A DNA stretch of 31,445 bases from an uncultured bacterium (GTDB lineage Bacteria; Ratteibacteria; UBA8468; B48-G9; JAFGKM01). The DNA is taken from contig CAYORP010000218.1 in the NCBI GenBank assembly GCA_964406415.1, positions 1 to 31,445 on the forward strand. The letters run 5' to 3'. This document shows positions 46-31,122 of the stretch, piece after piece. The position numbers and the translations under genes were made by a program. Each line of letters starts with the position of its first letter. The stretch's first letter is position 1. The notes beneath the pieces were generated by a model. That model was not told where the DNA came from. It made no database searches and worked only from the letters and a program-made list of their open reading frames with translations.

Positions 46-46
46 A

Positions 47-1487: not shown

Positions 1488-1519
1488 TCAAAAAATTTAG
1501 AGCGAAGGGAGATAGTAAG

Positions 1520-4723: not shown

Positions 4724-4734
4724 AAGGGGGGATT

Positions 4735-9056: not shown

Positions 9057-9943
9057 AAAAGATACCTTTTGTATGGTCAAATGATGATATATCTTTCGGA
9101 CAATCTGATAAATTTAAAAGGCAGATTGAGTTTCTTGATAATCTGGAGATAAAGGGCAGTTTTTTTGTCGTTCCAAGAAGGGTGGCAAATGGAGAAGAGG
9201 TTATACAGGAGAACGGCAAGATGACACTTGACAGAGACAGCCAACTTTTAGACCTGATTGAAGATGCCAGGAAAAAGGGACATAGATTTTATCAGCATGG
9301 GTGGGTCCATACCCCTTACGAGTGCGGGATACCCGACCTTGAAATGCTTGACTTTTCAGGAGAGGTTAAAAAGCAGTTTTCAACAAGAAGGTTTGAGATT
9401 GAGCAGTCAATAAAACTGGAGGTCATTGTAGAAAAGATTGAACTTGGAAGAAAGGTATGGAGAAAAGCATTCGGAGAAGACTCCCCGGGTTTCCGTCCTG
9501 GCTGGGGAGCATATTGTTCTGACTACTACAAGGCACTTGAAATACTTGGTTTTAGGTGGAGTTCAGCAAGAATATACCTGTGGACCTCATGGGTATGGGG
9601 ACAGGGCATATTTGAGTTTAAAGAGGGGTTCAGAGAAGGGATAACCCCTTATCCACATAAAATTGGTAGAATAATTGAGATTCCCATCGGAGGCGACTAT
9701 GGTTTTAAAGTTAAAGAGCAAGATATTAACAGGTTCTTTAACCTTGCAGTAGAGGAGTTTAATCTGTGCTGGAGTAATGGCTATCCCTTTGTATTTGTTT
9801 CACACTGGCATGGACTTGAAAGAGACGGAACAAACACTGGATATAAGGTGCATCAAAAATTTATCACATATATTATTGAAAGCGAAAGGGCGGATTTTAT
9901 GACTGTGGAAGAACTTTATGAAAAGTATAGAGATAGAAAGTAA
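9053..9943 (+). CDS. Polysaccharide deacetylase-like protein (CE4/NodB superfamily, DUF2334-like), no signal peptide
   Basis: WSNDD, YQHGWVH, FRPGW and SHWH metal-binding/catalytic motifs. Start moved from the track's 9005 to ATG 9053, which forms an ATGA overlap with the upstream stop. Confidence 0.8.
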   Translation: MKKIPFVWSNDDISFGQSDKFKRQIEFLDNLEIKGSFFVVPRRVANGEEVIQENGKMTLDRDSQLLDLIEDARKKGHRFYQHGWVHTPYECGIPDLEMLDFSGEVKKQFSTRRFEIEQSIKLEVIVEKIELGRKVWRKAFGEDSPGFRPGWGAYCSDYYKALEILGFRWSSARIYLWTSWVWGQGIFEFKEGFREGITPYPHKIGRIIEIPIGGDYGFKVKEQDINRFFNLAVEEFNLCWSNGYPFVFVSHWHGLERDGTNTGYKVHQKFITYIIESERADFMTVEELYEKYRDRK

Positions 9944-9950
9944 ATCCTCA

Positions 9951-9979
9951 TTGAATGTCATAGATGGACCCTTTATAGT
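9951..9979 (+). promoter_or_regulatory. Candidate internal sigma70-type promoter upstream of the GH20 gene
   Basis: TTGAAT (9951-9956), 17 bp, TATAGT (9974-9979), in the only gap of about 100 bp in the operon. Confidence 0.55.
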
Positions 9980-10045
9980 ACTGACAAGAAAGACGCAGGC
10001 TAAAACCAACAGATGAAAAACGAGTCGGTTATCTGAATACTTCCG

Positions 10046-11761
10046 ATGGAAATTTACAAGATAGAGTCGAACAGGATAAGGATTGAGGTTGATAAAAAAG
10101 GTGATATAGTCAATCTGCTTGATAAAAAAGAAAAGATAAACTTTGTTAAAAAGAAAAATGTCTTTAGTAAAGGCGGGCTCCAGATATGGGTGAAGGAGGG
10201 AAGACTTGGTAGGGATGCGGGGGGGACTCTTTCCCATAAGTTTTCAGACATAACATTCAAAACCCCTACCATAAAGATTAAAGATTCCAATATATATATT
10301 GAGAAGAGAGAAAAAGAAGAGGTATTGAAGACATCTTATGATATAAATGATGAAGGAGTTGCAATCTTTGTCTCCCTCAAAAACAAAGGAAAGCCAAAAC
10401 TTCAACAGTTTGAGTTCTTTTTTAGCTGGGAACTACCTGCCAGGACAAATATCCTAATCCCTGTCGGAAATAGATATACAAATTATATTATCCCACCTTT
10501 CGGAAGGGTTGTAACAGAAAGGTTCAGGTTTTCCCCTGAGCCTGTTTATCTCATATTTGAAAATGGGAGCGGCCTAAAGATTGAGTTTTCACAACTTGGA
10601 ACATATGTAATATATAACAGAGGAAAGATGTGCGTCATAGGTGGCTACACAGATGCAAAACTGGTAAAAAAAGAGAGAAAACTGGAAGAGACTATAAAGA
10701 TAATGCCATATAAGAAGAAGATTTACACCCATCCGAGAGAAGAAAAGTTTGTCTTTCCTGAGGTTTCAGAGAACCCATGGTTTCAAAAAAGGCTGATACA
10801 TCTCTCACTTTATTATCAACGGGTTGACCTCCAATCTCTGTTTTTTGTTTTGAGAAACCTGAAAAAGATTGGATACAACGGAGTGGTTCTTGGGATTGGC
10901 AAAGGGATGAGGTATGAGAGTTATCCTCAGGTAAGTGAAGAATGGTCTTATACGAAAGCAGAAGTTATGGAGATAAAGAGGAGTCTTGAAGAGATGGGGA
11001 TGGAGATTATACCTGAGTTCCCCACACTGGGACATCAAAACGATACAAACCTTGCAAGGGTTGACCCATCCCTCGTTGAGGACCCTGAAAATCCATCAGT
11101 CTACTGCACCTCCAATCCCAAGACATATACGGTTATCTTTTCACTTCTTGAAGAAATAATAGAGATATTCAGACCAGGCTTTTTCCATCTTACACACGAT
11201 GAGGTTCAACACTGGTTCAGCAAAAGAAAGATGGGGATTTGTGAAAGGTGTAAAGACAAAAAACTATGGGAGATTTATTCAGAGGATGTGAACAAACTGC
11301 ATGAATTCTTGGATAGTAAAGGGATAAGGATGACCTTATGGGGAGATATGCTTCTTGACCACAGGAGATTCAAGATTTGTAACTGCAATGGAGCAGCAGG
11401 AAATATATACAAATCTATTGACCTTATCTCAAAAGATATACTTGTTTTTGACTGGCACTATCATTATTATAGAAGTTATCCATCACTTGACTATTTCAGA
11501 GATAAAGGTTTTGATGTCTTTCCTGCAATGAGTTTTTTTAGACCAGAGGCGGTTGCCTCCTTCACAAGGTATTCTAAAAAAACAGGGATAAGAGGAGGGG
11601 CGATTGAAACAACATGGGCTGTGCCGGTTGTTGAGGAACTGCCCCTTGAGAATATCTTCATTGCCTCACAACTCTTTCAGAACCCAAACCATAATATCAA
11701 AAAACTGAAAAAACAGGCATATCAATTCGCAATGCACATCTATGAGGAGGCTAAAAAATGA
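10046..11761 (+). CDS. GH20-family beta-N-acetylhexosaminidase-like protein with N-terminal beta-sandwich domain, no signal peptide
   Basis: IIPEFPTLGH, FFHLTHDE (catalytic DE pair, nt 11198-11203), WGDML, FDWHY, ETTW. No clear SD, so the exact start is uncertain. Confidence 0.82.
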   Translation: MEIYKIESNRIRIEVDKKGDIVNLLDKKEKINFVKKKNVFSKGGLQIWVKEGRLGRDAGGTLSHKFSDITFKTPTIKIKDSNIYIEKREKEEVLKTSYDINDEGVAIFVSLKNKGKPKLQQFEFFFSWELPARTNILIPVGNRYTNYIIPPFGRVVTERFRFSPEPVYLIFENGSGLKIEFSQLGTYVIYNRGKMCVIGGYTDAKLVKKERKLEETIKIMPYKKKIYTHPREEKFVFPEVSENPWFQKRLIHLSLYYQRVDLQSLFFVLRNLKKIGYNGVVLGIGKGMRYESYPQVSEEWSYTKAEVMEIKRSLEEMGMEIIPEFPTLGHQNDTNLARVDPSLVEDPENPSVYCTSNPKTYTVIFSLLEEIIEIFRPGFFHLTHDEVQHWFSKRKMGICERCKDKKLWEIYSEDVNKLHEFLDSKGIRMTLWGDMLLDHRRFKICNCNGAAGNIYKSIDLISKDILVFDWHYHYYRSYPSLDYFRDKGFDVFPAMSFFRPEAVASFTRYSKKTGIRGGAIETTWAVPVVEELPLENIFIASQLFQNPNHNIKKLKKQAYQFAMHIYEEAKK

Positions 11762-14745
11762 AAAAGGCAATTATGTTTTTCTTCATATTCAGTATCCTTT
11801 TATTTTCAAACAATGAGAACCCATTACTTGAAAAAGAAATCTTCCCTCTATCAAACCCCTCATTTGAAGAAAACCTGAAGGACTGGGGAGGAAACCCAAA
11901 AGACAACTATATGTTAATGTACACCTACGGAAACATCCCCTGCAAGATTGCCGAGGATGGATATGATGGTAAAAAGTCATTATATATGGAACTGAACAGG
12001 GATGGCGCTTCGTATCTATATAGAAGTTTTAAACTTAAAGTTGGGAAAAAGTATTATGTCAGTGCAAAGATTAAGACTGAAGGGAATATCTATGGAAGTG
12101 TAAGGGTTGTCTATGGAGCCAGTGGGGAACCTTCTTCTTCCTTGGTTTCGCCTGACAGCAAATGGGAGGAGGCGGGGGTGAGTTTTACCGGCACAAAGAA
12201 AGGACAACCTAAAGATGCTGACCCCTCTGATGCCTATTGCGAGATAAGACTGCAAGCCAGCGGCAAAGGGAAGATTTACTATGATGATATAAGAATCCAA
12301 GAATTGAAGGAGTATCAGCCATACTTAAGGGTAAAACTTCTGTCAGGCGAAGGGAAATACAGGATTAAGATATATTCAAAGGTTGGACCACCTAAGTGGT
12401 TTTTCTCAAAAGTCTTTTTTGCAAAAGAGGGGTTGCAGATTGGAGAGTTCTCACCATGGATAAATCTGGGAGAATTTGAAGAATTTAAGGGAAGAGGTAT
12501 TGCCTATACAGGGGTGATATTTGAAGGTCTCAGTAGTAAGAAGTTGGATGAGATAAAGGCTGAGATTGATTTTGCCTATATGCCCGATGAAAAAACAATA
12601 TTGAAGAGGTTTGTAAGGCAGGTGAAGGGCAACATAATAGGTATCTTTATACCCAAAGGTGAAAATACCCCGACATATTTTGTTGAGAATGTAAAACTTC
12701 TGAAGGATAATGCTGAAGAGAGAAACAGATTTGTCAGGTCTCTTAATCTACCATTTGTTGAACTGAAGCACTACTTTGTTGAAGCACATCTGAAAGGATA
12801 TGGCTCTTTCTTCTCTGACCCCGAGATAGTAGAAAAAGAGGTCAACACATTACGAACCATTGGGTTTAATGCCATTGATTCCCAGTATTCAGGACTTGCC
12901 ACAGTTTACAGGGAGACAGCAGAAAAAGAAGGGATATTTCAAACACATCATACAATGAGAAGGTTTAACCTGCCTTTTGATAAAGAGACAAAAACATTTG
13001 TCTTTGATATCAACAAGATAAAAGAAAACATTGAGGTTGAAGTGAATGACTGGGTTGAAAGACTAAAAAAGGATGACCCCAAACAAACAGTACCTATAAA
13101 ATTTGTGGACATTGGAGATGAGATAGCAGGTTCTGTCTTCGGCGGGCAGGGTTATGAAGATGGTTATAAAAGATATCTAAAAGAACACAGGGTCAAACCA
13201 TCTGAATTAGGACTTAAAGACTGGGATGAGGTAAAGACATATGGAACATGGAACTGGAGAGAGGCAAGGGGGAAAAGACCAGAAAATAGAAAAGACCTAA
13301 GTGCTTGCAGAAGTTATTACTGGACACTGAGATACTGGAATTATGCAAATTCAGAGGTTTACAGGATAATGACTGAAACACTTGAAAAACACCTTCCAGG
13401 TATAACAACGAGGGTTAATTTCGGTCCACCATGGCTATATGAATACTGTTCATATCTGAGAGGAGCAGAGATATGGGAGTTTGCAAGAAACAGAAGTGTA
13501 TCATCAATGTGGAATGAGGACTGGCTTAATACCTATGGATGGAGAGGGGGTGGTGGAATTCAGATGTGTGCCTTTCTTGTTGACCTCAGCAGGAGTTGTG
13601 CCCAAACCCGTGGACTTGAAACAGATGCCTATGTGATGCCTGAAGGGAAAGAAAATATACAACTAAAACTTGCATCCGTGATAGGGAAAGGTGCCAAGAA
13701 GATGGGTATCTACAGATACGGGCCTGCATATGCTTCTCCTGACAGTTGGTCAGAGAACAGCAGTATGGTTGAAGGGGTATCCACCTTTTTGAGAAAACTT
13801 GGAAAGACCGAAGATGTTTTATTCCCTGGAAAACCACCAAAATCTGATGTTGCTATTGTCTGGTCACAAAGCAATGATATATGGAGAGATACAAATGACA
13901 GTATTACAGACAGAACCCTTATATACCTTGCACTTCTTCACAGGCAGGTCCCGGTTGACTTCATAGATGAAAAAGGGATAGAGGAAGGGAAACTTAAAGA
14001 CTACAGGGTTGTCTATCTTGCTTCAGAGTATCTTAAAAGGGATGCTCAGGAAAGGATTGAGGAATGGGTGAGAGGTGGTGGATATTTATGGGTTGATGGA
14101 CTTGGAGGTACAGGTGATGAATATGGACAGAAAACAGATATCCTGCTTCCAGTCTACGGTATAAAGGTTAAAGATGTAGTAAAAAGGGAAGACAAAAAGT
14201 TAGAGCAACCACTTGGAAAGATTATTATTGGAGATTCTGATATTGAAACAACCAGTATAAGGGTCAACTTTTCTTTAATTCAGCCATCAGAGACAGAGAT
14301 AATTGGTAGATATGAAGATGGTCAGCCTGCGATAATTGAACATAGATATAAAAAGGGAAAGGTATTCTATGTTCCAACATATGCAGGGCTGGTTTATTCA
14401 ACACCTGTTGTGAGAATACGAGGGAAGATAGAGACCGGATACAGAGAAAGAGAGAGGAAGATAATAACTGACCTTGCCCTGAAAGATGGAATAAAAAGAC
14501 CGGTTGAATGCAGTGTTGATTGTGTTGAGGTTGATTTACTTGAAAGTGAGAAAGGGACGGGACTGGTGCTTGCTAACTATACAGGTGAGTCTCAAAAAGA
14601 GATAAAGATTAGGGTCAAAACAGACAAAAAGATAAGGTCAGTCTATTCAGCAACAACAGACAAGACAGTACAGTTCAAAAGCGACACAGGATATGTAGAA
14701 TTTAATATTCCACTTGAAATTGTTGACCTTATAACACTGAGATAG
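11758..14745 (+). CDS. Secreted clan GH-A / GH42-like glycoside hydrolase, paralog C (N-terminal CBM4/9-like domain)
   Basis: Signal-like N-terminus; LSNPSFEE...IYYDDIRI (CBM4/9-like); IGDE (E455) and MWNE (E587); VAIVWSQSNDIW...PVDFIDE...IEEWVRGGG trimerisation domain. ATGA overlap, GAGGAGG SD. Confidence 0.77.
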   Translation: MKKAIMFFFIFSILLFSNNENPLLEKEIFPLSNPSFEENLKDWGGNPKDNYMLMYTYGNIPCKIAEDGYDGKKSLYMELNRDGASYLYRSFKLKVGKKYYVSAKIKTEGNIYGSVRVVYGASGEPSSSLVSPDSKWEEAGVSFTGTKKGQPKDADPSDAYCEIRLQASGKGKIYYDDIRIQELKEYQPYLRVKLLSGEGKYRIKIYSKVGPPKWFFSKVFFAKEGLQIGEFSPWINLGEFEEFKGRGIAYTGVIFEGLSSKKLDEIKAEIDFAYMPDEKTILKRFVRQVKGNIIGIFIPKGENTPTYFVENVKLLKDNAEERNRFVRSLNLPFVELKHYFVEAHLKGYGSFFSDPEIVEKEVNTLRTIGFNAIDSQYSGLATVYRETAEKEGIFQTHHTMRRFNLPFDKETKTFVFDINKIKENIEVEVNDWVERLKKDDPKQTVPIKFVDIGDEIAGSVFGGQGYEDGYKRYLKEHRVKPSELGLKDWDEVKTYGTWNWREARGKRPENRKDLSACRSYYWTLRYWNYANSEVYRIMTETLEKHLPGITTRVNFGPPWLYEYCSYLRGAEIWEFARNRSVSSMWNEDWLNTYGWRGGGGIQMCAFLVDLSRSCAQTRGLETDAYVMPEGKENIQLKLASVIGKGAKKMGIYRYGPAYASPDSWSENSSMVEGVSTFLRKLGKTEDVLFPGKPPKSDVAIVWSQSNDIWRDTNDSITDRTLIYLALLHRQVPVDFIDEKGIEEGKLKDYRVVYLASEYLKRDAQERIEEWVRGGGYLWVDGLGGTGDEYGQKTDILLPVYGIKVKDVVKREDKKLEQPLGKIIIGDSDIETTSIRVNFSLIQPSETEIIGRYEDGQPAIIEHRYKKGKVFYVPTYAGLVYSTPVVRIRGKIETGYRERERKIITDLALKDGIKRPVECSVDCVEVDLLESEKGTGLVLANYTGESQKEIKIRVKTDKKIRSVYSATTDKTVQFKSDTGYVEFNIPLEIVDLITLR

Positions 14746-14753
14746 GGGGGGAT

Positions 14754-17219
14754 ATGAGAAGAACTATCTTGTTGTTGGTTCTGTTTCCTTTGCTGCTTTT
14801 TGGAGAGGACAACTGGTACTTAAGATATAAACCTATAAGTGATTTTAAAGATGGGGTCTATGCAGATGTAGGAGGGATAGCACATCAGTCACCATGGTTC
14901 CCAAACTTTGGTTCTCTTCCGCTTTCAGGAAAAGGTTATCCCTGGAGATGGACAAAAACAGACAGTTATTCACCATGGTTAAAGATAGAGAAAAAACAAC
15001 TTTCAAAAAGACTCCCTGCAACAATAATACTTTCCTTCCATTCAAAAGATGAGGTTAAAAATATAAAGGTGGAGATAGAGGTTTCAGAGAACAAGACTGA
15101 TATTCTGACCTCAAGAGAGATAACCGGTGATGGTAACCTCATTTCTTTTCTTCTACCACCCGACCTGAAAAAGGGTGATAGAATAGTTACTGTCCCTGAA
15201 AAGATAGATGAGTATTATAAACTCTCAAGAGAGATTTTCCCTGATACCTCTCCTGACCTGAAAAATTTCATTATGGCAACGGGGGTTTGCGGATATAGAA
15301 GGCTCTTTAGTTCTCCAGACCTTTTAATGAAACAGTATAAGACTATCAGACACTATGGTATAAATTCAACAGGATGGATTAATGAAAAATGGGGAGAGGC
15401 AGGATTCAGGTATACACGCCTTGTCGGTGGGACTCCCTATGGGAAGATATGGCAGCCTGACTTTGATAGACTTGTAAAAGAAGGGGTGGAAAACCTTTGC
15501 AAAAGATATAAAGAAAATCTGCAGATACAGGATAAGGTATATTCAGTTGTTCTTGCTGATGAACCAGGCCTTTTAAGACTGAAAGAGGAAGATGAAAATA
15601 TTCAGAAGGCATTCAGAGAATATCTCAGAGAAAGAGGTCTTAACCCGTCTGACTTTGGACTTTCAAAATGGGAAGAGGTAAAACCGGCCTTTTCAAGGAA
15701 CAAATTTGCAGAGATAGAACGTCTTTATACAGAGAGAGAGGTAAAAGCCGCCAAAAAACTGTATTTCCACAGCAAAAAGTTCCAGAGTTTCAGCACTCTC
15801 TATGCATTTAAGAAACCGACAGAGATAATTTCAGAATACCTACCAGATAAAGCAAAGACATACATAAATTTCACTCCCCATCCAATGATTGGAGGAGGTA
15901 TGCTTTCAAGCAACTCCCCTGACTGGATTGAAGCAGGAAGAATACATGCAACAACAATGCCATGGTCTGAAGACTGGCTTGGAAGCAGTGGATGGGTTGC
16001 AATGAGCCTTGAATATACGGGATTTATAGCGGATATACTCAGAGGTGCGGCGAGGTATCATAATGACCCCGTAGGATTCTACATAATCCCTTCAGGTAAT
16101 TTCCCTACACTCCAAAAGTCATTCTCAGTTCTCGGCAGGGGGATAAAGATAATTGATTTCTTTGACTATGGTCCCCTGATATGCTCAACAGAGAACCACT
16201 TTTCAGATAATCATGAAAGCCTCAAAGGAGTAGGAATGTTTACAAGACTCATCTCAAAGATAGATGATGACTTCCCTGATGCAAGACTTATTACAAATCC
16301 TGTCGCAATCCTATGGTCAACATCAAGTGAGATATGGAAGGATGACAATGTCTCTCACACAGAGAATATGATGCTATGGCTTGCTCTTGATAGAAACCAG
16401 ATTATCCCTGATTTCATTGAAGAAGAAGATATAGAAGGTGAAGATATCTCAAACTATAAAGTGATTTATGCCACAGGTAAAAACATTACAGAGAAGGCAA
16501 CTGAAAAACTACTCGGGTGGGTTAAAAACGGAGGGGTTCTATGGTTGGAGGCAGGGTTTGGAATGTATAACGAGTATAACAGAGATAACAGTCGCCTCCG
16601 TGAGATCACAGGATTTCTACCAGAAAACCTTATCAAAAAAGACGCAGATAGATTTAACTGGAGAAGTTTAGCATCTCCACCTGTGATAGATAGTGTGAGT
16701 GGTAACGGACTTCAAGAGGTCCCCACAATTGCTTATAAACAGAAGATAGAGACAACAAAGGGCATCGTTGCAGCCTTTTCAGATAATACGCCCGCACTCG
16801 TTGAAAAGGAATATGGGAAAGGGACAATCTTCATCTCCTGTTTTATGCCGGGGCTATCCTATGGCTCAACAACAAACAAGTGGGAGAATAAAAATTTTGC
16901 TACATCTTTTAACGAAAAGATATTTGAGTGGCTGTATATACCTATCGCAAAGTCAGGTTATAAAAAGCAGGTCACTGTCAGTAAACCAGGTGTGCAGACA
17001 ACCATTCTAAAGAGTCCTGAAAAAACATACGTTGTGCTTGTGAATTATTGTAAGGACACTGAAAAAGGGGAGATTGATAACCTTGCGGTTGGTATACCGG
17101 GGATTAAAAACTATAAAAGGATATGGACTGTTCAGGATAAAAAGTTGAACATCTCCAAAAAGAATGGAGTTGAGATTGTATTACCACTTGATACCGCAGA
17201 TGTTATAGTTATAGAGTGA
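14754..17219 (+). CDS. Secreted clan GH-A / GH42-like glycoside hydrolase, paralog D (no N-terminal CBM)
   Basis: Signal peptide; LADE (E270) and PWSE (E406); VAILWSTSSEIW...PDFIEE...LLGWVKNGG trimerisation domain. Confidence 0.77.
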   Translation: MRRTILLLVLFPLLLFGEDNWYLRYKPISDFKDGVYADVGGIAHQSPWFPNFGSLPLSGKGYPWRWTKTDSYSPWLKIEKKQLSKRLPATIILSFHSKDEVKNIKVEIEVSENKTDILTSREITGDGNLISFLLPPDLKKGDRIVTVPEKIDEYYKLSREIFPDTSPDLKNFIMATGVCGYRRLFSSPDLLMKQYKTIRHYGINSTGWINEKWGEAGFRYTRLVGGTPYGKIWQPDFDRLVKEGVENLCKRYKENLQIQDKVYSVVLADEPGLLRLKEEDENIQKAFREYLRERGLNPSDFGLSKWEEVKPAFSRNKFAEIERLYTEREVKAAKKLYFHSKKFQSFSTLYAFKKPTEIISEYLPDKAKTYINFTPHPMIGGGMLSSNSPDWIEAGRIHATTMPWSEDWLGSSGWVAMSLEYTGFIADILRGAARYHNDPVGFYIIPSGNFPTLQKSFSVLGRGIKIIDFFDYGPLICSTENHFSDNHESLKGVGMFTRLISKIDDDFPDARLITNPVAILWSTSSEIWKDDNVSHTENMMLWLALDRNQIIPDFIEEEDIEGEDISNYKVIYATGKNITEKATEKLLGWVKNGGVLWLEAGFGMYNEYNRDNSRLREITGFLPENLIKKDADRFNWRSLASPPVIDSVSGNGLQEVPTIAYKQKIETTKGIVAAFSDNTPALVEKEYGKGTIFISCFMPGLSYGSTTNKWENKNFATSFNEKIFEWLYIPIAKSGYKKQVTVSKPGVQTTILKSPEKTYVVLVNYCKDTEKGEIDNLAVGIPGIKNYKRIWTVQDKKLNISKKNGVEIVLPLDTADVIVIE

Positions 17220-22546: not shown

Positions 22547-22659
22547 TTTCTTCGATTTATATGCCGTGAAGATACAAGTAACTACTTTATGGTTTATCTC
22601 CTTTACAATCAGGTTTTTCTTAACCATAGTAACACTATTTTGGGGAGACCGAAACTTAT

Positions 22660-22688
22660 TTGCTCTTTATCACACATCCTGTTAAAAT
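22660..22688 (+). promoter_or_regulatory. Candidate sigma70-type promoter (extended -10) for the lipoprotein-GT2 operon
   Basis: TTGCTC (22660-22665), 17 bp, TAAAAT (22683-22688) with TGn extension (TGTTAAAAT). Confidence 0.6.
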
Positions 22689-22721
22689 AGAAGAAAAGTA
22701 GTAAATAAAATAGGGGAAGCG

Positions 22722-22865
22722 ATGAGAAGACAAAAATTTGTTGCGATTTTTTTTCTGTTTGCCTCAGGAATTTTTGTTGTTCTCTTCAGTGGATGTACAG
22801 CAACAAGCAGCGGGAGCAACGCTATAGAAATAGATTCTGAAACCGGTGAAATCATTGAGGAATGA
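22722..22865 (+). CDS. Small lipoprotein, 47 aa, absent from the ORF track (MRRQKFVAIFFLFASGIFVVLFSG-CTATSSGSNAIEIDSETGEIIEE)
   Basis: AGGGGA SD, basic n-region, hydrophobic h-region, FSG-C lipobox (C25), and TGA stop overlapping the next ATG (ATGA at 22862-22865). Confidence 0.85.
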   Translation: MRRQKFVAIFFLFASGIFVVLFSGCTATSSGSNAIEIDSETGEIIEE

Positions 22866-25198
22866 TAAGAAAATTATCAATATCAGCCATAGTAGTTTTT
22901 ATTATTATGGCATTTGTATATGTAGACAACAATGAAAAAGAGGAAGAATATTTTCAGGAGAAGATAAGAGAATCTTCCTCTGACAGACTTGTTGTTTTAG
23001 GTGATTTTGAAAGAGAATACGAAGGATGGTCTGCCTCTGGCGGAAAAATTACAAGAAGTTCTAAACATGCATCCAGCGGCAGATACAGCCTTGAAATTTC
23101 ACAGGGGGAAGAAGAAGTAACCCTAACCAAAAAAGAAATTTTTGACTGGTCGGACATCAGCAACCTTTCATTTGATGTGTACCTGCCTTCAGGCGCAAAA
23201 GGGAAAGAGGTTTACATATCCGTTGTGGATAAAGAAAATTTCTGGTATAAGATAAAAAAAACATTCACCCTGTCAGAAGGGTGGAACTCCTGTCGGATAA
23301 ATATAGATGCTGATATGGTACCTGCAGGACACTATCGCCCATGGTCAGGATACATCTCTTCTTCTTTACAGGCAATAAACATAAAGTTTCAGTCCCGAAC
23401 ACCGTTTGTCTACCCTTTATACGTTGACAACATAAGAGTTTCGGGGGAAAAGTTTTCCGAAAAGAAACCACCACTGGGAATAAGAGATTTCAGGGTAAAT
23501 ACAACAGAGGTTGAAAAATATGCAAGGTTTGAGGTTAGTTTTCTACTCTCCAGGGAGTACAATAATCCTTTTGACCCTGAACAGGTCAGGATAGACTGTG
23601 TTTTTTTTGCTCCGTCAGGAAAGATGGTTGAGACACCTGGATTTTTCTATCAGCAATACATAAGAAGATTGTCTGCGGGAAAAGAACATCTCATCCCGGC
23701 GGGAACAGCCAGATGGCTTGTCCGCTTTGCACCATGTGAAACCGGGACATACAGATATTACATAAGGGTAAAAGACAGGTATGATTCAATTAAAACAGAT
23801 AATCTGAAATTTGTATCCCGGCCCTCTTCCAATCGTGGATATGTCAGGGTAAATAGCAGTGAGAAAAGATATTTTGAACTTGAAGACGGCTCTTTTTTTT
23901 ATCCAATAGGACTCAATCTCATATCTCCATGGGACACACCCTATCAACAGAAATACGTTGAAACACTGCCCCTGGGACTCGGGACATATATCTACGACAG
24001 GTATATTGATAAGATGTCCGCAAACGGAATGAATTTTTTCCGTATGTGGATGGCTCACTGGTGGCTGGCTCTCGAGTGGAACCCTGAGAAAGGCCCTTTT
24101 CAGGGGATAGGCAGATACAGTCTCAGTAATGCTTGGAGGCTTGACCACATAATAGAACAGGCAGAAAAACACGGCATTTACGTTCTTCTCACACTGAACA
24201 ACCATACGCAACTGACGGGCCATGAAAGAGGATGGGAGATGAATCCTTACAACAGGGCAAATGGTGGATTTCTAACTCACACTGAGGAATTTTTTACAAA
24301 TCCACAGGCAAAAGAGATGCACAAAAAAAAACTGAGATACATTATCGGAAGGTGGGGATATTCCACCGCTGTTTTTGCCTGGGACCTGTGGAGCGAGGTG
24401 GACCTGACAGGCGGATTTAATTCTTTCAAAGTAAGACAGTGGCACAAAGAGATGGCAGGATACATCAAGAAAAACGACCCTTCAGGACATATGGTATCAA
24501 CACACTTCTGCATTCCGTCAAGGACTCTGGAATGGGAACTACCTGAAGAGATGGATTTTATACACAGCAACTCATGGGTTAACGTAGACGGGTTTTCTGA
24601 TTCTCAGGTGGAGGCAATATCACAGTACTATGAACGTATGAAAAGATTTGGTACTCCCACATTTGTATCTGAATATGGAGGACACTGGGCAGGCAGTGAG
24701 AGAGAGGTAATGCTCAGAGACCTGCATACCGGACTGTGGGCAAATTATATGATACCTCTCTCCGGCAGTCCGCAATTCTGGTGGTGGAACCTGATTGACG
24801 AGGAAGACCTTTATTTCCATTACGGTGCGCTTGCTCGTTTTGCAGAGGGAGAGGAACGAAGAGGTAAAAACCTCCAGCAAAAAAAGGGCGTTATAGAGAA
24901 TGATGAGTCAGGTCATCTCTCAGCAATCTTACTTGGCAATGACACCACAGTTTACGGCTGGATATACAACTTTCTCACTGCCCTGCGTATATCACATGAG
25001 AAGATAAACCTCAGTGGGGCCTATCTCCTCATCAGCAATCTTCGCAATGGAAGATACAGAATAGAGTTCTGGGATACATATAAGGGCAGAATCACCGGGA
25101 CAATAAATGCGGCTGCGAGCAATGGAATGCTGAAAATTGCCCTGCCGGATATTGAAAATGATATTGCCTGCAAAATAAAGAGGATGGATGAGCAATAA
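22862..25198 (+). CDS. Membrane-anchored GH5-like TIM-barrel protein with CBM-like and DUF5060-like N-terminal domains
   Basis: N-terminal TM/signal anchor; GDFE...LSFDVYLP...LYVDNIRV (CBM-like); YNNPFDPEQV...WLVRFAPCETGTYRY (DUF5060-like); YFELEDGSFFYPIG, RYIIGRWGYSTAVFAWDLWSE (E512), FVSEYG (E604). Confidence 0.78.
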   Translation: MIRKLSISAIVVFIIMAFVYVDNNEKEEEYFQEKIRESSSDRLVVLGDFEREYEGWSASGGKITRSSKHASSGRYSLEISQGEEEVTLTKKEIFDWSDISNLSFDVYLPSGAKGKEVYISVVDKENFWYKIKKTFTLSEGWNSCRINIDADMVPAGHYRPWSGYISSSLQAINIKFQSRTPFVYPLYVDNIRVSGEKFSEKKPPLGIRDFRVNTTEVEKYARFEVSFLLSREYNNPFDPEQVRIDCVFFAPSGKMVETPGFFYQQYIRRLSAGKEHLIPAGTARWLVRFAPCETGTYRYYIRVKDRYDSIKTDNLKFVSRPSSNRGYVRVNSSEKRYFELEDGSFFYPIGLNLISPWDTPYQQKYVETLPLGLGTYIYDRYIDKMSANGMNFFRMWMAHWWLALEWNPEKGPFQGIGRYSLSNAWRLDHIIEQAEKHGIYVLLTLNNHTQLTGHERGWEMNPYNRANGGFLTHTEEFFTNPQAKEMHKKKLRYIIGRWGYSTAVFAWDLWSEVDLTGGFNSFKVRQWHKEMAGYIKKNDPSGHMVSTHFCIPSRTLEWELPEEMDFIHSNSWVNVDGFSDSQVEAISQYYERMKRFGTPTFVSEYGGHWAGSEREVMLRDLHTGLWANYMIPLSGSPQFWWWNLIDEEDLYFHYGALARFAEGEERRGKNLQQKKGVIENDESGHLSAILLGNDTTVYGWIYNFLTALRISHEKINLSGAYLLISNLRNGRYRIEFWDTYKGRITGTINAAASNGMLKIALPDIENDIACKIKRMDEQ

Positions 25199-27406
25199 AT
25201 GGTAAAAATAGAAATGTATATAAGGTTGAAACTTTTATGCATGACAGGCCTGTGGGTATTTTTCTGCACAAACCTTTTTGCGGAGACGCCGTGGTGGAAC
25301 CCTGACTGGAAATACAGAGCGGAGATACTCATTGAAACCCCTAAACTCAATACCTCTGTTGATACATCTTCGGTAAACCTTTTTACAGACGGCAGGTCAA
25401 AACCCGGCGGGGATGACATAAGAATCGTTGACATAGAAGGGAAAGAGGTGCCTTGCAAAGTGATATCAGAAAAACCAGAAGGTTTTGAAGTCTTATTCCG
25501 CGTGGAAGGTAAAAATAGAGAACTTTTCCATGCATACTTCGGCAACATACTGGCAGAAAAACCTTCTTATCACTGGATACCACAGACAGGCGAACTCACC
25601 CTTGAAACACGACAAAAAACAGACCACAGACACCCTGCAAATCTTGAACAGATGGTCAGGGGATTCAACGCAAGCAGCCCTGTATATAAAAAAGGGGTGC
25701 GGAAAAAAATTGACGACAGTGAAAATCCTTTCGGGCCTAATAATTATTATTACAGTTATTACCGCGGGCACATCAACTGCCCCATAGAAGGAGAATACTG
25801 GTTTGCCACAAATTCAGATGATGCATCCTTTTTACTGATTGACGGCAAACCGGTTATAGGCTGGCCATTATCCCACACAAAAGACGGAGGAGTAAACAAG
25901 CCCCTCGTAAATATTTGGACAAGGCGAAACAGGATTAACCTCCATAAAGGGATTCACCTCATAGAATATTATCAGGAAGAAGGGGTGGGTTCACAGATGG
26001 CAAGAGCAGGATGGAAAAAACCCGGGGATGAAGATTTTGAGATTATCCCGGAAGAATTTTTTATATCTTCCCTGAACGCAGTTCAGAACTCTTTTGAAGA
26101 AAAAGACTCCACGCCGTACGCCTTTTTCAGATTCACCGCTGTGAGGAATATCCGGTTCAAAGGATTGAAAGAGGAGTTTGTTACCCTGAAATTTATAAAC
26201 AAAACATTTTCACCTGAGGGGAAAGAAATTGCATACCGCTGGAACTTTGGTGATGGAACATACAGTGACAAGAAAGAACCCGAGCACACACTTGTCGCAG
26301 GCAGGGAATATAATATCAGTCTTACTATTACCGACATGGATAAGAAAGGGAAAAACAAAATAACGATACCGGTCAAAATAGAAAAAGAGACTATAAAAGC
26401 AGAGAGGTTCAGTCTGAATATGGGAGTGATGAGCAACAAGATGGTTTATGACGAAAGAGAAATGGCTGGTATTAAATACTGGGTAAGAAACTATACTGAG
26501 AAACCTATCACACTCTCAGTATCCCGTGAAGTTTTTACACGCAGCAGTGAAGGTCTTTCTAACACCACAGAGGCTATAAGTCTTGAACCCTACAAATCAA
26601 GGGAGACCTCTTTTTCTGTTTCTCCTGAGGTTTCTGAAATACGTCTTTCTCTTAAGTATAACGGACATACCATTATACGTAAAGATATCATCTTTCTTGA
26701 ACCAATGGAGAAGATTCCTGCATTGAACCTTTCTGAAGGAAAGATTGAAGACCAGCATGGGAAACAGGTACTGATAAGAACAAAAAGCATACCAGAAAAG
26801 GTTTCATCTTATTCAGGACTTAAAAATAATATCTCAAGAATTGTACTTGTAAGCAGCCATGGCCAGAATCCTCCTGACGGTAAAACCTATTGCGAACAAT
26901 TTGTAAGCAGTCTTGTGGACAGGGAAAACAACAGACCTAAGATAATACCAGTGAGAATAGAAGCATCCATACCTTATTATTCCCCGCTGCTGGCTCTTAT
27001 AAAAATGAACGAGATACTGAGCCAGAATCCGGATATGCTCCTGTTTGTACCCGGACAGAATGAAATAAACTATATGCTTGAGGTGAATAAAGAATTTAAA
27101 AACCTGCTTTCTTTTTTTGTGACAGTATTGCAAACAAATAATGTTCAGTGTATGCTCATTGTACCTCCTGCAGTACCGGGTAAGGTTGAACAATCAACAT
27201 CTCTTGCGGTTGCCATAAAAGAGGTCGGTCTGAGACAGTCAATATTATTGTTAGACCTTTACAGTTCACTGCCGGATGGAAAACAAAAAATAGGAACTTA
27301 TTACAGGACGGCAAATACACTTTCTTCTTTTCCAAATGTTGCAACCCAGAAGTTTCTGGCGGAAAGGTTATCTGAACACATAAAAAAATGGATAAGTCCC
27401 AGATAA
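25199..27406 (+). CDS. Secreted multidomain protein: DUF2341-like + PA14 + PKD + degenerate SGNH-like domain
   Basis: Signal peptide; PWWNPDWKYR...GDDIRIVD (DUF2341-like); GEYWFATNSDDASFLLIDGK (PA14 with DD pair); YRWNFGDG (PKD); LFVPGQNE...LLLDLY...FPNVATQKFLA (SGNH-like without catalytic His). Confidence 0.78.
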   Translation: MVKIEMYIRLKLLCMTGLWVFFCTNLFAETPWWNPDWKYRAEILIETPKLNTSVDTSSVNLFTDGRSKPGGDDIRIVDIEGKEVPCKVISEKPEGFEVLFRVEGKNRELFHAYFGNILAEKPSYHWIPQTGELTLETRQKTDHRHPANLEQMVRGFNASSPVYKKGVRKKIDDSENPFGPNNYYYSYYRGHINCPIEGEYWFATNSDDASFLLIDGKPVIGWPLSHTKDGGVNKPLVNIWTRRNRINLHKGIHLIEYYQEEGVGSQMARAGWKKPGDEDFEIIPEEFFISSLNAVQNSFEEKDSTPYAFFRFTAVRNIRFKGLKEEFVTLKFINKTFSPEGKEIAYRWNFGDGTYSDKKEPEHTLVAGREYNISLTITDMDKKGKNKITIPVKIEKETIKAERFSLNMGVMSNKMVYDEREMAGIKYWVRNYTEKPITLSVSREVFTRSSEGLSNTTEAISLEPYKSRETSFSVSPEVSEIRLSLKYNGHTIIRKDIIFLEPMEKIPALNLSEGKIEDQHGKQVLIRTKSIPEKVSSYSGLKNNISRIVLVSSHGQNPPDGKTYCEQFVSSLVDRENNRPKIIPVRIEASIPYYSPLLALIKMNEILSQNPDMLLFVPGQNEINYMLEVNKEFKNLLSFFVTVLQTNNVQCMLIVPPAVPGKVEQSTSLAVAIKEVGLRQSILLLDLYSSLPDGKQKIGTYYRTANTLSSFPNVATQKFLAERLSEHIKKWISPR

Positions 27407-28797
27407 AAGAGCAGTTTTTGAGTTATCAGGAAAGCGCCCGGGAGGTACTTTCAAAAAAACAGGTTTTTATATCTGCGTTTATTATTTTAGTCCTTATTTA
27501 TGGCTGGTTTTACAGACCTGACAGGGCATTCATATATGTGAACCTTGCAGTGATGCTCTTTTATCTGATATTTATGTTTTACAAGGTGGTAATAATATTA
27601 CGTTCGGGTCGTAAAGAAGGTATGTTAAGGGTCTCCGCTGAAGAAATCAGCCAGTTAACGGATGAACATCTGCCGATTTACACCATACTTGTACCACTAT
27701 ACAGGGAAACAGAGGTTTTAAGACAGATAGTTGAATCCATTGAAAAGATGGACTATCCCATTGAAAAGATGGACATAAAACTTCTACTTGAAGAGGACGA
27801 CACCGAAACAATAGAGGCGTGCAAAAGTCTGAATCTTCACCCCTCTTTCAGCATGGTCATTGTGCCCGATGGAATACCGAAAACCAAGCCCCGTGCCTGT
27901 AATGTCGGACTCTCTCTGGCAAAGGGGAAATATACGGTCATATATGATGTAGAAGATATACCTGAACCTGACCAGTTAAAAAAGAGCATCGCAGGGTTTT
28001 CCATGTCCCCTGAAAGGGTCGTCTGCCTTCAGGCAAAACTTAACTTTTATAACCAGCGGCAGAACCTTCTAACCCGCTGGTTTACCCTTGAATATTCCAT
28101 GTGGTTTGACCTGTACCTTCCCGCTCTCGGTCTGATTGATGCTCCCATACCTCTTGGAGGGACGTCAAACCACTTTGTTACGGAGAAGATTAAAGAACTG
28201 GGAGGATGGGACGCTTTCAACGTTACCGAAGACTGCGACCTCGGCATCAGGATATACCGCTCCGGCTACCGCACACTTATGCTTGACTCAACAACATGGG
28301 AAGAAGCCTGCAGTAACCTCAGATACTGGCTGCCCCAGAGGTCAAGATGGGTCAAGGGACACATCCAGACATATCTTGTGCACCTCAAGCACCCTGCCCT
28401 CCTGTTGAAACAGATAGGTATAAAAAAGATTATACACTTCCATCTTTTGATAGGAGGAATGTTCTTTTCTCTTTTGATTAACCCTTTCTACTGGATTTTC
28501 CTTGCAATATGGATTCTGACACGCTGGGATATAATGGCAGTCTTCTTTCCACCTGCAGTCTTTGCCATGGGGGCTGTATGCCTTTTCCTCGGCAATTTCG
28601 CATTCATATATACAGTTGCTGTGGGGGCAGCACACAGGGGATATTACGACCTTGTTAAGTATGCTTTTTTGATACCTCCTTACTGGGTTCTTATGAGTAT
28701 AGGTGCGTGGCGAGGTTTTATACAACTGATTGTAAATCCTTTTTACTGGGATAAGACAAAACATGGATTTTTCAGGTTCGGAGGCCATAATGACTGA
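27388..28797 (+). CDS. Processive membrane GT2 glycosyltransferase (cellulose-synthase-like superfamily)
   Basis: Two N-terminal TM helices; TILVPLYRE, EEDD, TKPRACN, YDVED (DxD-like), GGTSNHF, VTEDCDLG (TED), QRSRW (QxxRW); further C-terminal TM helices. 19-nt overlap with the upstream gene. Confidence 0.92.
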   Translation: MDKSQIKEQFLSYQESAREVLSKKQVFISAFIILVLIYGWFYRPDRAFIYVNLAVMLFYLIFMFYKVVIILRSGRKEGMLRVSAEEISQLTDEHLPIYTILVPLYRETEVLRQIVESIEKMDYPIEKMDIKLLLEEDDTETIEACKSLNLHPSFSMVIVPDGIPKTKPRACNVGLSLAKGKYTVIYDVEDIPEPDQLKKSIAGFSMSPERVVCLQAKLNFYNQRQNLLTRWFTLEYSMWFDLYLPALGLIDAPIPLGGTSNHFVTEKIKELGGWDAFNVTEDCDLGIRIYRSGYRTLMLDSTTWEEACSNLRYWLPQRSRWVKGHIQTYLVHLKHPALLLKQIGIKKIIHFHLLIGGMFFSLLINPFYWIFLAIWILTRWDIMAVFFPPAVFAMGAVCLFLGNFAFIYTVAVGAAHRGYYDLVKYAFLIPPYWVLMSIGAWRGFIQLIVNPFYWDKTKHGFFRFGGHND

Positions 28798-30058
28798 AAA
28801 ACAATTCTCGTCCGAACAGCACATTATCTTTCTCACATTTTTCACAGTCTATCTGTCTGCGGCAGTATATATTAAAATACACATCGGGTATCTACCGGAA
28901 GAATTAATCATACGCACTCAACAGTTCCTTGATATTATAGCGGGAAACCAGAATGCAAAGCAGAGCATTATTGGCTCTGTACTGCTACCTCCGCTTCCGG
29001 CGATACTCAGGACGCCTTTTGCCCTCCTGCCTCTTGAGATAAATACGCTGTTTATGGGCAGTGTTATATCTGCCCTTTTTGGTGCGGGTTCGGTGCTCTT
29101 TCTGAACACCCTGATGAAGAATTATAACTGGAACAGACTGACAAGAGTTTTTTTTCTCGCTTTATTCGGCCTGCACCCTCTTTTTGCATTTACCTCTACC
29201 TCCGGCTCAGACACTGCTACCTTCATATTCTTCTTTACGGGCTCTCTGGTCTACATGCTCCTGTATCTCAAAGAAGAGCAGATGCGCCCTCTCCTCTTTA
29301 TGACACTATTTTTATCCCTTATGCTTATCACGACAGTAGAGGGACTGCTTTATGCACTTTTTATCGTACTCGTGTTTGTGGCGGTAACACTTTTTAGAAA
29401 GCACCCACCATCCTTTAAGGAAGGTACGCTGCTTCTCGCCTTACTGCCCCCGGTCTACACTGTATTTGTCTGGGGTTTATTCAACTGGTTTATCCTGGGA
29501 GACTTCTTTTATTTCCTGAGAGGTATCTCCTTTTACCTGCAGGGCTTTTCTTTTTCTCAGATATCGTTTATCCCGTTGCTTTTTTTACTGCTGGTTGAAA
29601 TTCTTTCGTTTCAGTCTTCAGGATATACGCCTTCAAAAACTGTGAAGGTATCATCTGTACTGATTCTACTTGCCCTTGCATACATCTTCGTCAGCCCCGT
29701 TCATACGATTGGCGGTGAGATAAGAAGAACAAAAAACAGGGTTATGGACGAGATTAAACTGATACGCCAGATTGAACGGTTTCCTGAAGACGCAAGGTTT
29801 ATAATAACAGGTTACAGGGGGTATATACTCAAACACTATGCAGTTTCTTCAGACAACCTCCTGCACATATTTGATTTTTATGCGGACAACATCTATCCTG
29901 CAGACAAACCGTCTTTTCTCCTTCTATATGAACCAACACCCGGGAGCATACTGGACGGTATATATTACAGGTACGGGGATATTTATAACACAGGGGCGGA
30001 CTTTCTTCTTCTTGAAAAAGAACTCCCCGGCTGGAAGATATACCGCTTTATATTTTAA
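28790..30058 (+). CDS. Polytopic membrane protein, GT-C (ArnT/PMT-like) superfamily candidate
   Basis: About 9-10 hydrophobic segments; first loop PEELIIR...LLPPLPAILRTP; LHPLF...GSDT; soluble C-terminal tail. Start moved from 28763 to ATG 28790 (GGAGG at 28780-28784, 8-nt overlap with the GT2 stop). Confidence 0.65.
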   Translation: MTEKQFSSEQHIIFLTFFTVYLSAAVYIKIHIGYLPEELIIRTQQFLDIIAGNQNAKQSIIGSVLLPPLPAILRTPFALLPLEINTLFMGSVISALFGAGSVLFLNTLMKNYNWNRLTRVFFLALFGLHPLFAFTSTSGSDTATFIFFFTGSLVYMLLYLKEEQMRPLLFMTLFLSLMLITTVEGLLYALFIVLVFVAVTLFRKHPPSFKEGTLLLALLPPVYTVFVWGLFNWFILGDFFYFLRGISFYLQGFSFSQISFIPLLFLLLVEILSFQSSGYTPSKTVKVSSVLILLALAYIFVSPVHTIGGEIRRTKNRVMDEIKLIRQIERFPEDARFIITGYRGYILKHYAVSSDNLLHIFDFYADNIYPADKPSFLLLYEPTPGSILDGIYYRYGDIYNTGADFLLLEKELPGWKIYRFIF

Positions 30059-30144: not shown

Positions 30145-31122
30145 ATGGAATATATTAAACTGGGTGGATTGGGTGCTTCAAGAGTCTGTATGGGCTGCTG
30201 GAATATAGTGGGGGATGCTACATGGGGGCCCCAGGATGAAAAAGAATCCATAGAGACCATCAAAACTGCACTTGACAACGGGGTAAACTTTTTTGATACT
30301 GCAGAGGCATATGGTAACGGCTACTCTGAGGAACTTCTGGGTAAAACCCTTTCCGGACTGAGAGACAGGGTTGTAATAGCAACAAAAACAGCAAGGTTAT
30401 CCCCTGATGAGATAACAAAAAGGTGTGAAGAAAGTTTAAAACGTCTGAAGACCGACTATGTGGATTTATATTATCTACACTGGCCTGACTGGAATATACC
30501 GCTGGAAGAAACCGTTAATGCAGTAAAAAAACTGGAGAAAGCGGGTAAGATAAGGATGTGTGCTGTCTCCAACTTCGGCAGGCGTGACTTAAACGACATC
30601 CTGAAATATTACGAGGTAAAAATAAATCAGGTTGCCTACAACCTGCTTTTCCGGGCTGTGGAGTTTGAAATTCTACCTGAGTGCATAAAAAACAGTGTGG
30701 GAATTGCCTGTTATTCATCAATAGCAGAGGGACTGCTGACAGGAAAATTTTCTTCCCCGGATGAGGTGCCTGAAGGTAGGGCAAGGACGAGACACTTCTC
30801 TATGTCACGCCCACAGACTGGACACAACGAAGAAGGGGTTGAGGAACTCACCTTTAATGCAATAAAGGAGATAGGTGAGATTGCAGATGAACTTTCCATT
30901 TCTATGGCTGAGATATCTCTTGCATGGCTGCTTGCCAGAAAGGGTGTCTCTTTTGTCATTGCCGGTGCTCGCAAACCATCCCAGATTATTCAAAACAGCA
31001 AGGCAGGAAATCTGAAACTGCCAAAAGACGTTGTTTCAAGACTGGACAAGGTTACAGAAAAACTGAAATCCTCTCTCGGTTCCAATCCAGATATGTGGAA
31101 ATCAATCCCCAGAATAAGATAG
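30145..31122 (+). CDS. Aldo/keto reductase (NAD(P)H-dependent)
   Basis: LGGLGASRVCMGCW, FFDTAEAYGNG (catalytic D and Y), IATK, DLYYLHWPD, VSNF, NQVAYNLL, GLLTGKF, IAGARKPSQI. Confidence 0.95.
   Translation: MEYIKLGGLGASRVCMGCWNIVGDATWGPQDEKESIETIKTALDNGVNFFDTAEAYGNGYSEELLGKTLSGLRDRVVIATKTARLSPDEITKRCEESLKRLKTDYVDLYYLHWPDWNIPLEETVNAVKKLEKAGKIRMCAVSNFGRRDLNDILKYYEVKINQVAYNLLFRAVEFEILPECIKNSVGIACYSSIAEGLLTGKFSSPDEVPEGRARTRHFSMSRPQTGHNEEGVEELTFNAIKEIGEIADELSISMAEISLAWLLARKGVSFVIAGARKPSQIIQNSKAGNLKLPKDVVSRLDKVTEKLKSSLGSNPDMWKSIPRIR

Follow-up and report, generated by a model that had tools for sequence, protein, structure and literature searches.

A GT2 synthase and its GT-C-fold neighbour form the conserved core of a candidate xag/sfz-type glycan operon in a PVC-type bacterium

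Introduction

What do five tightly packed genes of an uncultured bacterium build, and is their assembly a machine in its own right or a variant of one already described? The genes (genes 1 to 5) lie on a contig of 31,445 nt (CAYORP010000218.1, assembly GCA_964406415.1), the whole of which was analysed and is called the window here; judged by the surrounding genes, its host is a bacterium of the Planctomycetes-Verrucomicrobia-Chlamydiae (PVC) type. A preliminary description made from the sequence alone had seen in these genes a glycan synthesis and export system of unfamiliar composition, an undescribed machine. We find that the synthase encoded by gene 4, a family 2 glycosyltransferase (GT2), and the membrane protein encoded by gene 5, modelled with a GT-C fold, are neighbours in most of the related loci, and that the operon is, on balance, probably a synthase-dependent glycan system of the xag/sfz type. 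It is a lineage variant of a genetically described, biochemically unsolved system, and its main interest lies in the conserved GT2-GT-C core rather than in the composition of this particular operon.

Two published gene clusters frame the question. In the xag-like cluster of stalk-forming iron oxidisers, CDS9 is BcsB-like and CDS10-12 are similar to xagBCD (PMC4643136), and in the sfz1-4 cluster Sfz2 combines a T2SSE_N domain with a GT2 bearing QxxRW, Sfz3 (about 500 aa) has no known domain and Sfz4 (about 330 aa) is a glycoside hydrolase (PMC8250860). This xag-like/sfz cluster is a candidate for making the stalk matrix in iron-oxidising Beta- and Zetaproteobacteria (PMC4643136, PMC8250860), and in Xanthomonas oryzae pv. 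oryzicola deletion of xagA or xagB lowers the raised biofilm of an rpfG mutant (PMC3609779).

Results

The synthase belongs to a widespread family, probably of XagB type

Gene 4 is matched by three GT2 Pfam models and holds the full motif set of processive synthases, EEDD, YDVED (the DxD motif), TED and QRSRW, with the D, DxD, TED and QxxRW motifs placed between N- and C-terminal transmembrane (TM) helices. Across the family alignment there is no or almost no variation in the residues of YDVED, TED, QRSRW, KPRACN and GGTSNHF; the first DD (in EEDD) occurs in the window protein as well as in the consensus of the family. Judged by these motifs, the protein probably polymerises and translocates a glycan. 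A word-indexed search returned 7896 matches to the window GT2, whose relatives are encoded by at least 590 GTDB species; the best 80 share 44-55% identity and span Actinomycetota, Chloroflexota, Kiritimatiellota, Verrucomicrobiota, Planctomycetota, Omnitrophota, Sumerlaeota, Bacillota, Patescibacteria, Aquificota and Proteobacteria. The closest named match, 90% identical, bears the Joint Genome Institute (JGI) name 'glycosyltransferase XagB', which supports the XagB-type assignment that the preliminary description had proposed.

Against the synthases of Escherichia coli the family profile scored 79.6 bits with BcsA, 30.5 with PgaC and 27.8 with NfrB; members of the family score hundreds of bits (E <= 1e-180) and the window's own protein 1087 bits. 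The phylogeny that the preliminary description had suggested, run against BcsA, PgaC and NfrB, put the window GT2 far from all three, whose saturated branches lie outside a compact XagB-type clade. Inside this clade the window GT2 groups with the proteins of three other loci (L001, L002 and L010) in a PVC/Sumerlaeota/Brocadiia group, and it shares the clade with gammaproteobacterial MshEN-GT2 proteins encoded in BcsB/GH113 clusters (see below). MshEN domains, receptors of cyclic di-GMP (c-di-GMP), are common at the N-terminus of GT2 relatives (L074, L079, L018 and P0113), with one copy in Gammaproteobacteria and in P0113. Pfam found no MshEN in the 469-aa window GT2, which also carries no extra GT2 or GT4 module.

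Elsewhere in the family the domain architecture is more elaborate. A Dehalococcoidia protein (L018 6382-10392) has apparently six tandem N-terminal MshEN domains, its open reading frame (ORF) start being a naive call, and in Patescibacteria and some Gammaproteobacteria (L070, L073, L051, L082 and L060) the XagB-type core is fused to an N-terminal soluble GT2, a C-terminal GT4 or both, in proteins of 1100-1600 aa.

Gene 5 is predicted to encode a GT-C-fold membrane protein

Gene 5 has no match among the curated Pfam and NCBIfam models. A word-indexed search found three relatives and an exhaustive phmmer search 642 clusters; the few named members of the family are all labelled 'hypothetical protein', and PMT_2 of Pfam is matched weakly by 15 of 83 relatives. 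An AlphaFold model built on an alignment of 83 sequences has a predicted local distance difference test (pLDDT) value of 92.5, and its structural matches are exclusively GT-C enzymes, with Pmt4 at the top (Z 19.1), Pmt1/2 and Pmt4 at Z 18-19, STT3 and PglB at Z 15-16, and also AftB (Z 12) and EmbB. The top Foldseek matches are likewise all GT-C and include ArnT, RgtA-D and TMEM260 in the AlphaFold database. The modelled protein would have about nine TM helices and a periplasmic C-terminal alpha/beta domain. Residue E47, directly after the first TM helix in the first periplasmic loop, is E or D in 75/83 sequences, the second periplasmic acid, D247, is D in 66/83 and ends a nearly invariant N-W-L-I-M-G-D motif, and P229 and W242 are invariant; this is the pattern of acidic residues to be expected if the enzyme is a catalytically competent GT-C. 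Published descriptions give the XagC/Sfz3-type gene no known domain, and the GT-C fold found here fills that place.

The GT2 and GT-C genes travel together

Loci were gathered by a scan of genome contigs with the GT2 alignment, and the GT-C genes in them were recognised with the profile of the gene 5 family (A1). The best 80 GT2 relatives provided as many species loci, spread over more than ten phyla, and in 58 of these 80 an A1-family gene is found no more than 1.5 kb from the GT2 gene (directly downstream in 55/80). A further nine hold an A1 gene within 9 kb, and 13 are without one, five of these ending at a contig edge. The paired loci come from Actinomycetota, Chloroflexota, PVC phyla, Bacillota, Patescibacteria, Aquificota and Proteobacteria, and the GT2 is the only partner that co-occurs almost everywhere with the GT-C gene. 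Searches of ORFs found no GT2-GT-C fusion, the long GT2 ORFs carrying extra GT2, GT4 or MshEN modules, and literature searches (on xagC, and on GT-C proteins with synthase-dependent systems) found no description of the pair.

A complex prediction for the window GT2 and GT-C protein scored 0.74 and the best of three controls 0.01; among solved complexes 51 of 78 attained 0.74, among mismatched pairs 2 of 108. The modelled interface joins GT2 residues 400-427 to the GT-C helix bearing P229 and Y232, and coincides with the most conserved membrane segments of both families. The model supports binding between the GT2 and the GT-C protein.

In three loci of Gammaproteobacteria (L074, L076 and L079) the pair belongs to a cluster of four genes, BcsB-like (about 710-740 aa), MshEN-GT2 (about 630-650 aa), GT-C (about 500-526 aa) and GH113 (about 350 aa), and this cluster matches xag-like CDS9-12 and sfz1-4 in order, sizes and domains as published. 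The operon's core is common to these clusters, so that the unfamiliar composition and undescribed machine of the preliminary description are not supported. Among the pair's partners elsewhere, BcsB-like proteins, N-terminal MshEN domains (one to six copies) and GH113 are of the exopolysaccharide type. A CotH kinase-like gene (L079 13786-15564) follows one of the clusters, beyond a 276-aa ORF with no Pfam match.

Closer to the window, the four large genes keep the same order in L001, L002, L010 and L091 with different flanks, and this synteny supports reading them as a conserved glycan-synthesis module. The module is rearranged in L003 and L017; in L037 the GT2 and GT-C genes are accompanied by a weakly matching PA14-PKD-like gene. 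Some relatives (L004) add a DPMS-like GT2 and a GtrA gene.

A mobile copy was met in a survey of plasmids, in which the Geobacillus plasmid alone gave informative context. Conjugative plasmid pEF60063-1 of Geobacillus stearothermophilus (L007, 3099-9836) has in a row a ManC-type nucleotidyltransferase, a BcsB-like protein, an XagB-type GT2 and a GT39-annotated GT-C protein, the last of which matches the A1 profile (E 3e-14; hhalign probability 86%). This copy in a cultured thermophile is a possible experimental entry point.

The accessory proteins comprise a probable hydrolase and a pseudo-esterase

In gene 2, Pfam recognised CBM_4_9 (weakly), DUF5060 and the GH5 'Cellulase' model (26.3 bits against a cut-off of 23.5), and the N-terminal anchor looks uncleaved. 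Residues 202-776 match PDB entry 9gmj, a 'DUF5060 domain-containing protein' (E 5e-82), one of nine solved entries of a 568-aa DUF5060 protein that match gene 2 (9gmj, 9gpa, 9gpg, 9gpc-9gpf, 9hhj and 9him); literature searches for DUF5060/PF16586 and the PDB codes found no publication on this solved enzyme. The next-best solved matches to the gene 2 family profile are mostly GH5 endo-beta-1,4-mannanases. E512 and E604, invariant in nine relatives, align with the WNE and GEFG motifs of 9gmj. The Asn before the acid/base Glu is replaced, giving WSE in the window, in four other operon-head copies and in two Kiritimatiellia-type opposite-strand copies, and WNE is kept in second hydrolase copies that flank the module in L001 and L002. 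Since both catalytic Glu are kept, gene 2 probably encodes an active enzyme and not merely a guide. Homology between gene 2 and the gammaproteobacterial GH113 was rejected at the sequence level (hhalign probability 0.2%).

Relatives of gene 3 are few (39 in a word-indexed search), and full-length ones accompany the GT2 in PVC-type loci. Its AlphaFold2 model (pLDDT 84.7) shows a leader helix, a beta-sandwich, PA14, PKD, a further immunoglobulin (Ig)-like domain and an SGNH fold, of which VIA-align recovered SGNH (residues 545-735; Z 17.7, spanning 546-729), a PA14 of the sugar-binding type (Z 16.4) and PKD (Z 13.3). The block V His is absent in 17/17 aligned gene 3 sequences, and the block I Ser is replaced by His in the window copy, distant relatives keeping it as DDSL. 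Because the His is missing throughout the family and the Ser from the window copy, we regard the SGNH domain as a pseudo-esterase, for which the loss of the His in all 17 makes a non-catalytic guide or scaffold role plausible. The preliminary description had cast two non-canonical enzyme folds as chain guides: this remains plausible for the SGNH domain, and the hydrolase, with both its catalytic Glu, speaks against it. The idea that gene 3 encodes a BcsB homologue found no support, as Foldseek and VIA-align over the PDB gave SGNH, PA14, PKD and a generic beta-sandwich only, and the protein is at most a positional substitute for BcsB. In a sister family of Planctomycetota proteins (P0299-P0319) the N-terminal PA14-PKD half is kept and tetratricopeptide (TPR) repeats replace SGNH; the exporters AlgK, BcsC, PgaA and NfrA have such repeats as their scaffold motif.

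The 47-aa ORF of gene 1 has no Pfam match. L091, whose GT2 is 90% identical, has a homologue that shares the mature tail and is likewise coupled by ATGA, and no counterpart lies upstream of the module in L001 or L002. It is probably a real gene and a genus-level addition, and the micro-lipoprotein cannot be kept as a part of the conserved module.

Operon architecture and surroundings

The ORF list and direct reading of the junctions confirm five genes on the same strand in which every junction overlaps or abuts, as first described (Table 1). An ATGA overlap joins genes 1 and 2, the TAA stop of gene 2 is followed directly by the ATG of gene 3, genes 3 and 4 overlap by 19 nt, and genes 4 and 5 by 8 nt (ATGACTGA), counted from the gene 5 ATG at 28790. 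GGAGG lies 5 nt upstream of this ATG, and the 422-aa cluster member from NCBI implies the same start.

Table 1. Coordinates of the operon genes and of the region upstream, in window positions
Feature	Position	Strand	Size and remarks	Basis
Gene 1, micro-lipoprotein	22722..22865	+	47 aa; signal peptide, FSGC lipobox, acidic tail	Translation
Gene 2, CBM4_9-like / DUF5060 / GH5-like (clan GH-A) glycoside hydrolase with N-terminal anchor	22862..25198	+	778 aa	Pfam
Gene 3, secreted beta-sandwich / PA14 / PKD / Ig-like protein with C-terminal SGNH-fold pseudo-esterase	25199..27406	+	735 aa	Pfam and structure
Gene 4, XagB-type membrane-integrated GT2 synthase	27388..28797	+	469 aa; two N-terminal TM helices, GT-A domain, C-terminal TM bundle	
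Gene 5, GT-C-fold polytopic membrane protein, XagC/Sfz3-like by position	28790..30058	+	422 aa; alternative start 28763 gives 431 aa	
Intergenic region upstream of gene 1	22602..22711	+	Two sigma-70-like promoter matches	Weak consensus matches

A gap of 175 nt separates gene 1 from an upstream GH106-like gene ending at 22546. The single promoter read from the sequence earlier is not confirmed, promoter-like hexamers numbering 23 against 15.5 +/- 4.5 in shuffled sequences, which is not clearly above. As to the domains that had been named, CBM_4_9 (weak), DUF5060, GH5, PA14, PKD and GT2 were recovered with Pfam and SGNH and GT-C by structure; DUF2341 was not detected in gene 3, even at E <= 1 in Pfam. 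Among the absences noted at the outset, BcsB (PF03170) was matched neither in the operon nor anywhere in the 88%-complete genome, and Pfam/NCBIfam gave no TPR and no c-di-GMP receptor (MshEN or PilZ) in the five operon proteins.

From 38 to 17219 two DUF1559/N-methyl pseudopilin genes open a long same-direction series of glycoside-hydrolase-like genes, which includes four GH42M-containing paralogues, a GH20-like and a DUF2334/deacetylase-like gene, with no transporter in view. In related PVC loci (L003 1-6048; L002 12780-13472) the module adjoins genes of the pilus/type II secretion type, namely a secretin, PilM, a T2SSE ATPase and N-methyl pseudopilins; the window's closest pseudopilin genes are 21 kb from the module. 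The module is closely followed by an aldo-keto reductase gene (30145-31122), and one is also found near it in a close relative (L090 7051-8061) and in a Kiritimatiellae metagenome-assembled genome (L003 17890-18885), a proximity that may reflect linkage or chance. The window stretch was found in DNA runs of aquatic and freshwater-sediment metagenomes only.

Discussion

A working model and its weak points

In the arrangement we favour, the inner-membrane GT2 would polymerise a beta-linked glycan from a nucleotide sugar and thread the chain through its own TM bundle, as its motifs suggest. The GT-C-fold protein, its neighbour by synteny, would pack in the model against the last TM helices of the synthase and, because its periplasm-facing acidic residues are kept, probably works on the chain as it leaves the synthase, perhaps by attaching a lipid-linked sugar or by passing the chain to an acceptor. 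The place of the BcsB-like subunit of other phyla would be taken by the secreted PA14-PKD protein, whose SGNH domain is dead and which probably binds and guides the chain in the periplasm. The membrane-anchored DUF5060/GH5-like enzyme would trim or release the polymer, as BcsZ, CcsZ or the GH113 gene do elsewhere. The window copy comes without a c-di-GMP sensor domain and without an outer-membrane exporter.

As to the product, context offers a few hints, each weak, towards mannose: GH113 is a beta-mannanase family, gene 2 has mannanase-like GH5 matches, a ManC gene heads the Geobacillus cluster, and the best structural matches of the GT-C protein are mannosyltransferases. A beta-mannan-like or otherwise mannose-based product is conceivable, at rather less than even chances. 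A bolder proposal, which we hold tentatively and think somewhat unlikely, is that the GT2 and GT-C proteins form a distinct ancient synthase-dependent class, spread over at least 590 species and more than ten phyla, in which the nascent chain (possibly a beta-mannan) is handed to the bound GT-C protein, which branches it or ligates it to an envelope acceptor, the PVC version having swapped BcsB for a pseudo-esterase lectin. We know of no such hand-over in any characterised Bcs, Alg, Pel, Pga or Nfr system.

Several points weigh against the assignment to a synthase-dependent system of the xag/sfz type. To our knowledge none of the members of this GT2 family, Xag included, has a demonstrated polymer, and no known synthase-dependent system has a GT-C partner, which makes the part played by the GT-C protein a guess. 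The 88%-complete genome yielded no GtrA-type flippase and the operon contains no gene for a lipid-sugar synthase, and the donor for a decorating GT-C enzyme is thus unexplained. The operon has no gene for a TPR protein, porin or secretin, leaving no outer-membrane exporter in view. The hydrolase family is not exclusive to the operon, two paralogues of gene 2 lying elsewhere in the genome (G000:C164:3466-5655, 39% identity; G000:C182:14619-16841, 34%). Strong GT-C matches occur in only 5/40 related genomes, so that the module is patchy among relatives and an accessory trait. The putative orthology of the window GT2 with XagB and of gene 5 with XagC, lastly, is drawn from the JGI database name and the correspondences with published descriptions, not from Xanthomonas sequences.

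Alternative explanations

The same pair of membrane proteins could serve a two-step periplasmic glycosylation, by analogy with ArnC/ArnT and GtrB/GtrC: the GT2 would build a lipid-linked sugar or short glycan and bring it across the membrane, and the GT-C enzyme would glycosylate an envelope acceptor (a protein, lipid or wall polymer). This is the main rival, and we consider it unlikely, though it has much to draw on. All characterised GT-C enzymes use lipid-linked donors, as is generally known, and the GT2 is both the sole near-universal partner of the GT-C gene and predicted to bind its product. The DPMS-like GT2 and GtrA gene added in L004, the fusion of the GT2 core to further GT modules in Patescibacteria, the finding of no GtrA in the 88%-complete genome, and a monoglucosyl-diacylglycerol synthase cluster that the ESM Atlas puts among the neighbours of the GT2 also point this way. 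What speaks for polymerisation instead is that TED and QxxRW are invariant, both of which serve the sugar acceptor in characterised processive GT2 synthases such as BcsA, and that in other phyla the pair is accompanied by BcsB-like subunits, c-di-GMP-binding MshEN domains and endo-type GH-A hydrolases; moreover, two-step glycosylation leaves the PA14 lectin-like protein and the hydrolase unexplained.

The missing porin would be explained if the same synthase core made a glycan that is never exported and stays in the periplasm or anchored in the membrane, of an osmoregulated-glucan-like or lipoglycan-like kind. The operon's want of a TPR, porin or secretin gene, the predicted periplasmic or membrane-anchored location of all accessory proteins, and the general knowledge that GT-C enzymes often build lipoglycans agree with this; yet a TPR protein adjoins the module in L001, the same PA14-PKD half is fused to TPR repeats in relatives, an exporter could be encoded elsewhere in the incomplete genome, and Xag genes affect biofilm, an extracellular trait (PMC3609779). 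We judge an envelope-retained glycan to be improbable, more so than two-step glycosylation. Least probable by far, and already disfavoured, is a chance neighbourhood in which genes 2 and 3 belong to the glycan-degrading repertoire of the window and merely abut an unrelated GT2/GT-C pair: the upstream 22 kb are packed with glycoside-hydrolase-like genes and the genome has three DUF5060/GH5-like paralogues, but the start and stop codons overlap and L001, L002, L010 and L091 repeat the gene order amid different flanks.

Significance

The xag-type synthase is among the most widespread and most conserved bacterial GT2 families, with 44-55% identity kept from Patescibacteria to Proteobacteria, and the GT-C fold of its partner, with conserved acidic residues and predicted binding to the synthase, makes the question of the polymer and of the partner's task directly testable. 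The PVC variant further indicates that the periplasmic accessories can be exchanged, with a PA14-PKD pseudo-esterase, or the sister protein fused to TPR repeats, standing in for BcsB and a DUF5060/GH5-like enzyme for GH113, which helps to tell core from accessory parts in synthase-dependent secretion.

Comparison with known systems

Cellulose-type BcsA-BcsB-BcsZ(-BcsC) systems share with the window a membrane-integrated processive GT2 with D, DxD, TED and QxxRW, an adjacent periplasmic partner and a periplasmic endo-hydrolase, and BcsA is the best solved sequence match of the GT2 family profile (E 2e-21). However, the window GT2 reaches 53.3 bits against the NCBIfam CelA cut-off of 699.1, PilZ, BcsB and BcsC are missing, and the GT-C partner has no counterpart in Bcs. 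The NfrB-NfrA-YbcH system of E. coli (N4 glycan receptor exopolysaccharide) is alike in having a GT2 whose family includes relatives with the MshEN c-di-GMP receptor, yet MshEN is C-terminal in NfrB and N-terminal in XagB-type relatives, and the window has no NfrA-like porin and no WecB-like epimerase. Membership of the NfrB subfamily was rejected (BLASTP identity 22%, E 3e-5, with MshEN at the opposite end in relatives).

The GtrB/GtrA/GtrC, ArnC/ArnEF/ArnT and CsbB/GtcA/YfhO systems likewise pair a GT2 with a GT-C-fold enzyme that has a conserved periplasmic acidic residue. They differ in that the window GT2 is of the synthase type (QxxRW, multiple TM helices) and not DPMS-like, that Pfam found no second GT2 in the operon, and that the 88%-complete genome yielded no GtrA (PF04138). 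With AlgX, AlgJ and PatB, gene 3 shares an SGNH-fold periplasmic domain joined to carbohydrate-binding modules beside a synthase, and PatB and OatA are among the fold matches of its SGNH domain; unlike those proteins, its family is without the catalytic His and the window copy without the Ser, and it is probably not an acetyl-esterase or acetyl-transferase.

The closest likeness is to xag/sfz. The GT2 probably belongs to the same family, gene 4 corresponding to XagB/Sfz2 without MshEN, the next gene encodes an otherwise unannotated membrane protein (about 430 aa in the window and about 500 aa there), and a hydrolase of clan GH-A in the window cluster would take the function of XagD/Sfz4. The window differs in having no MshEN on its GT2 and no BcsB-like or XagA gene, in a DUF5060/GH5-like hydrolase that is unrelated in sequence to GH113, and in the added PA14-PKD-pseudo-SGNH protein. 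Mapped onto the xag/sfz layout, three of the four large genes correspond by function, and the position of BcsB is filled by an unrelated protein.

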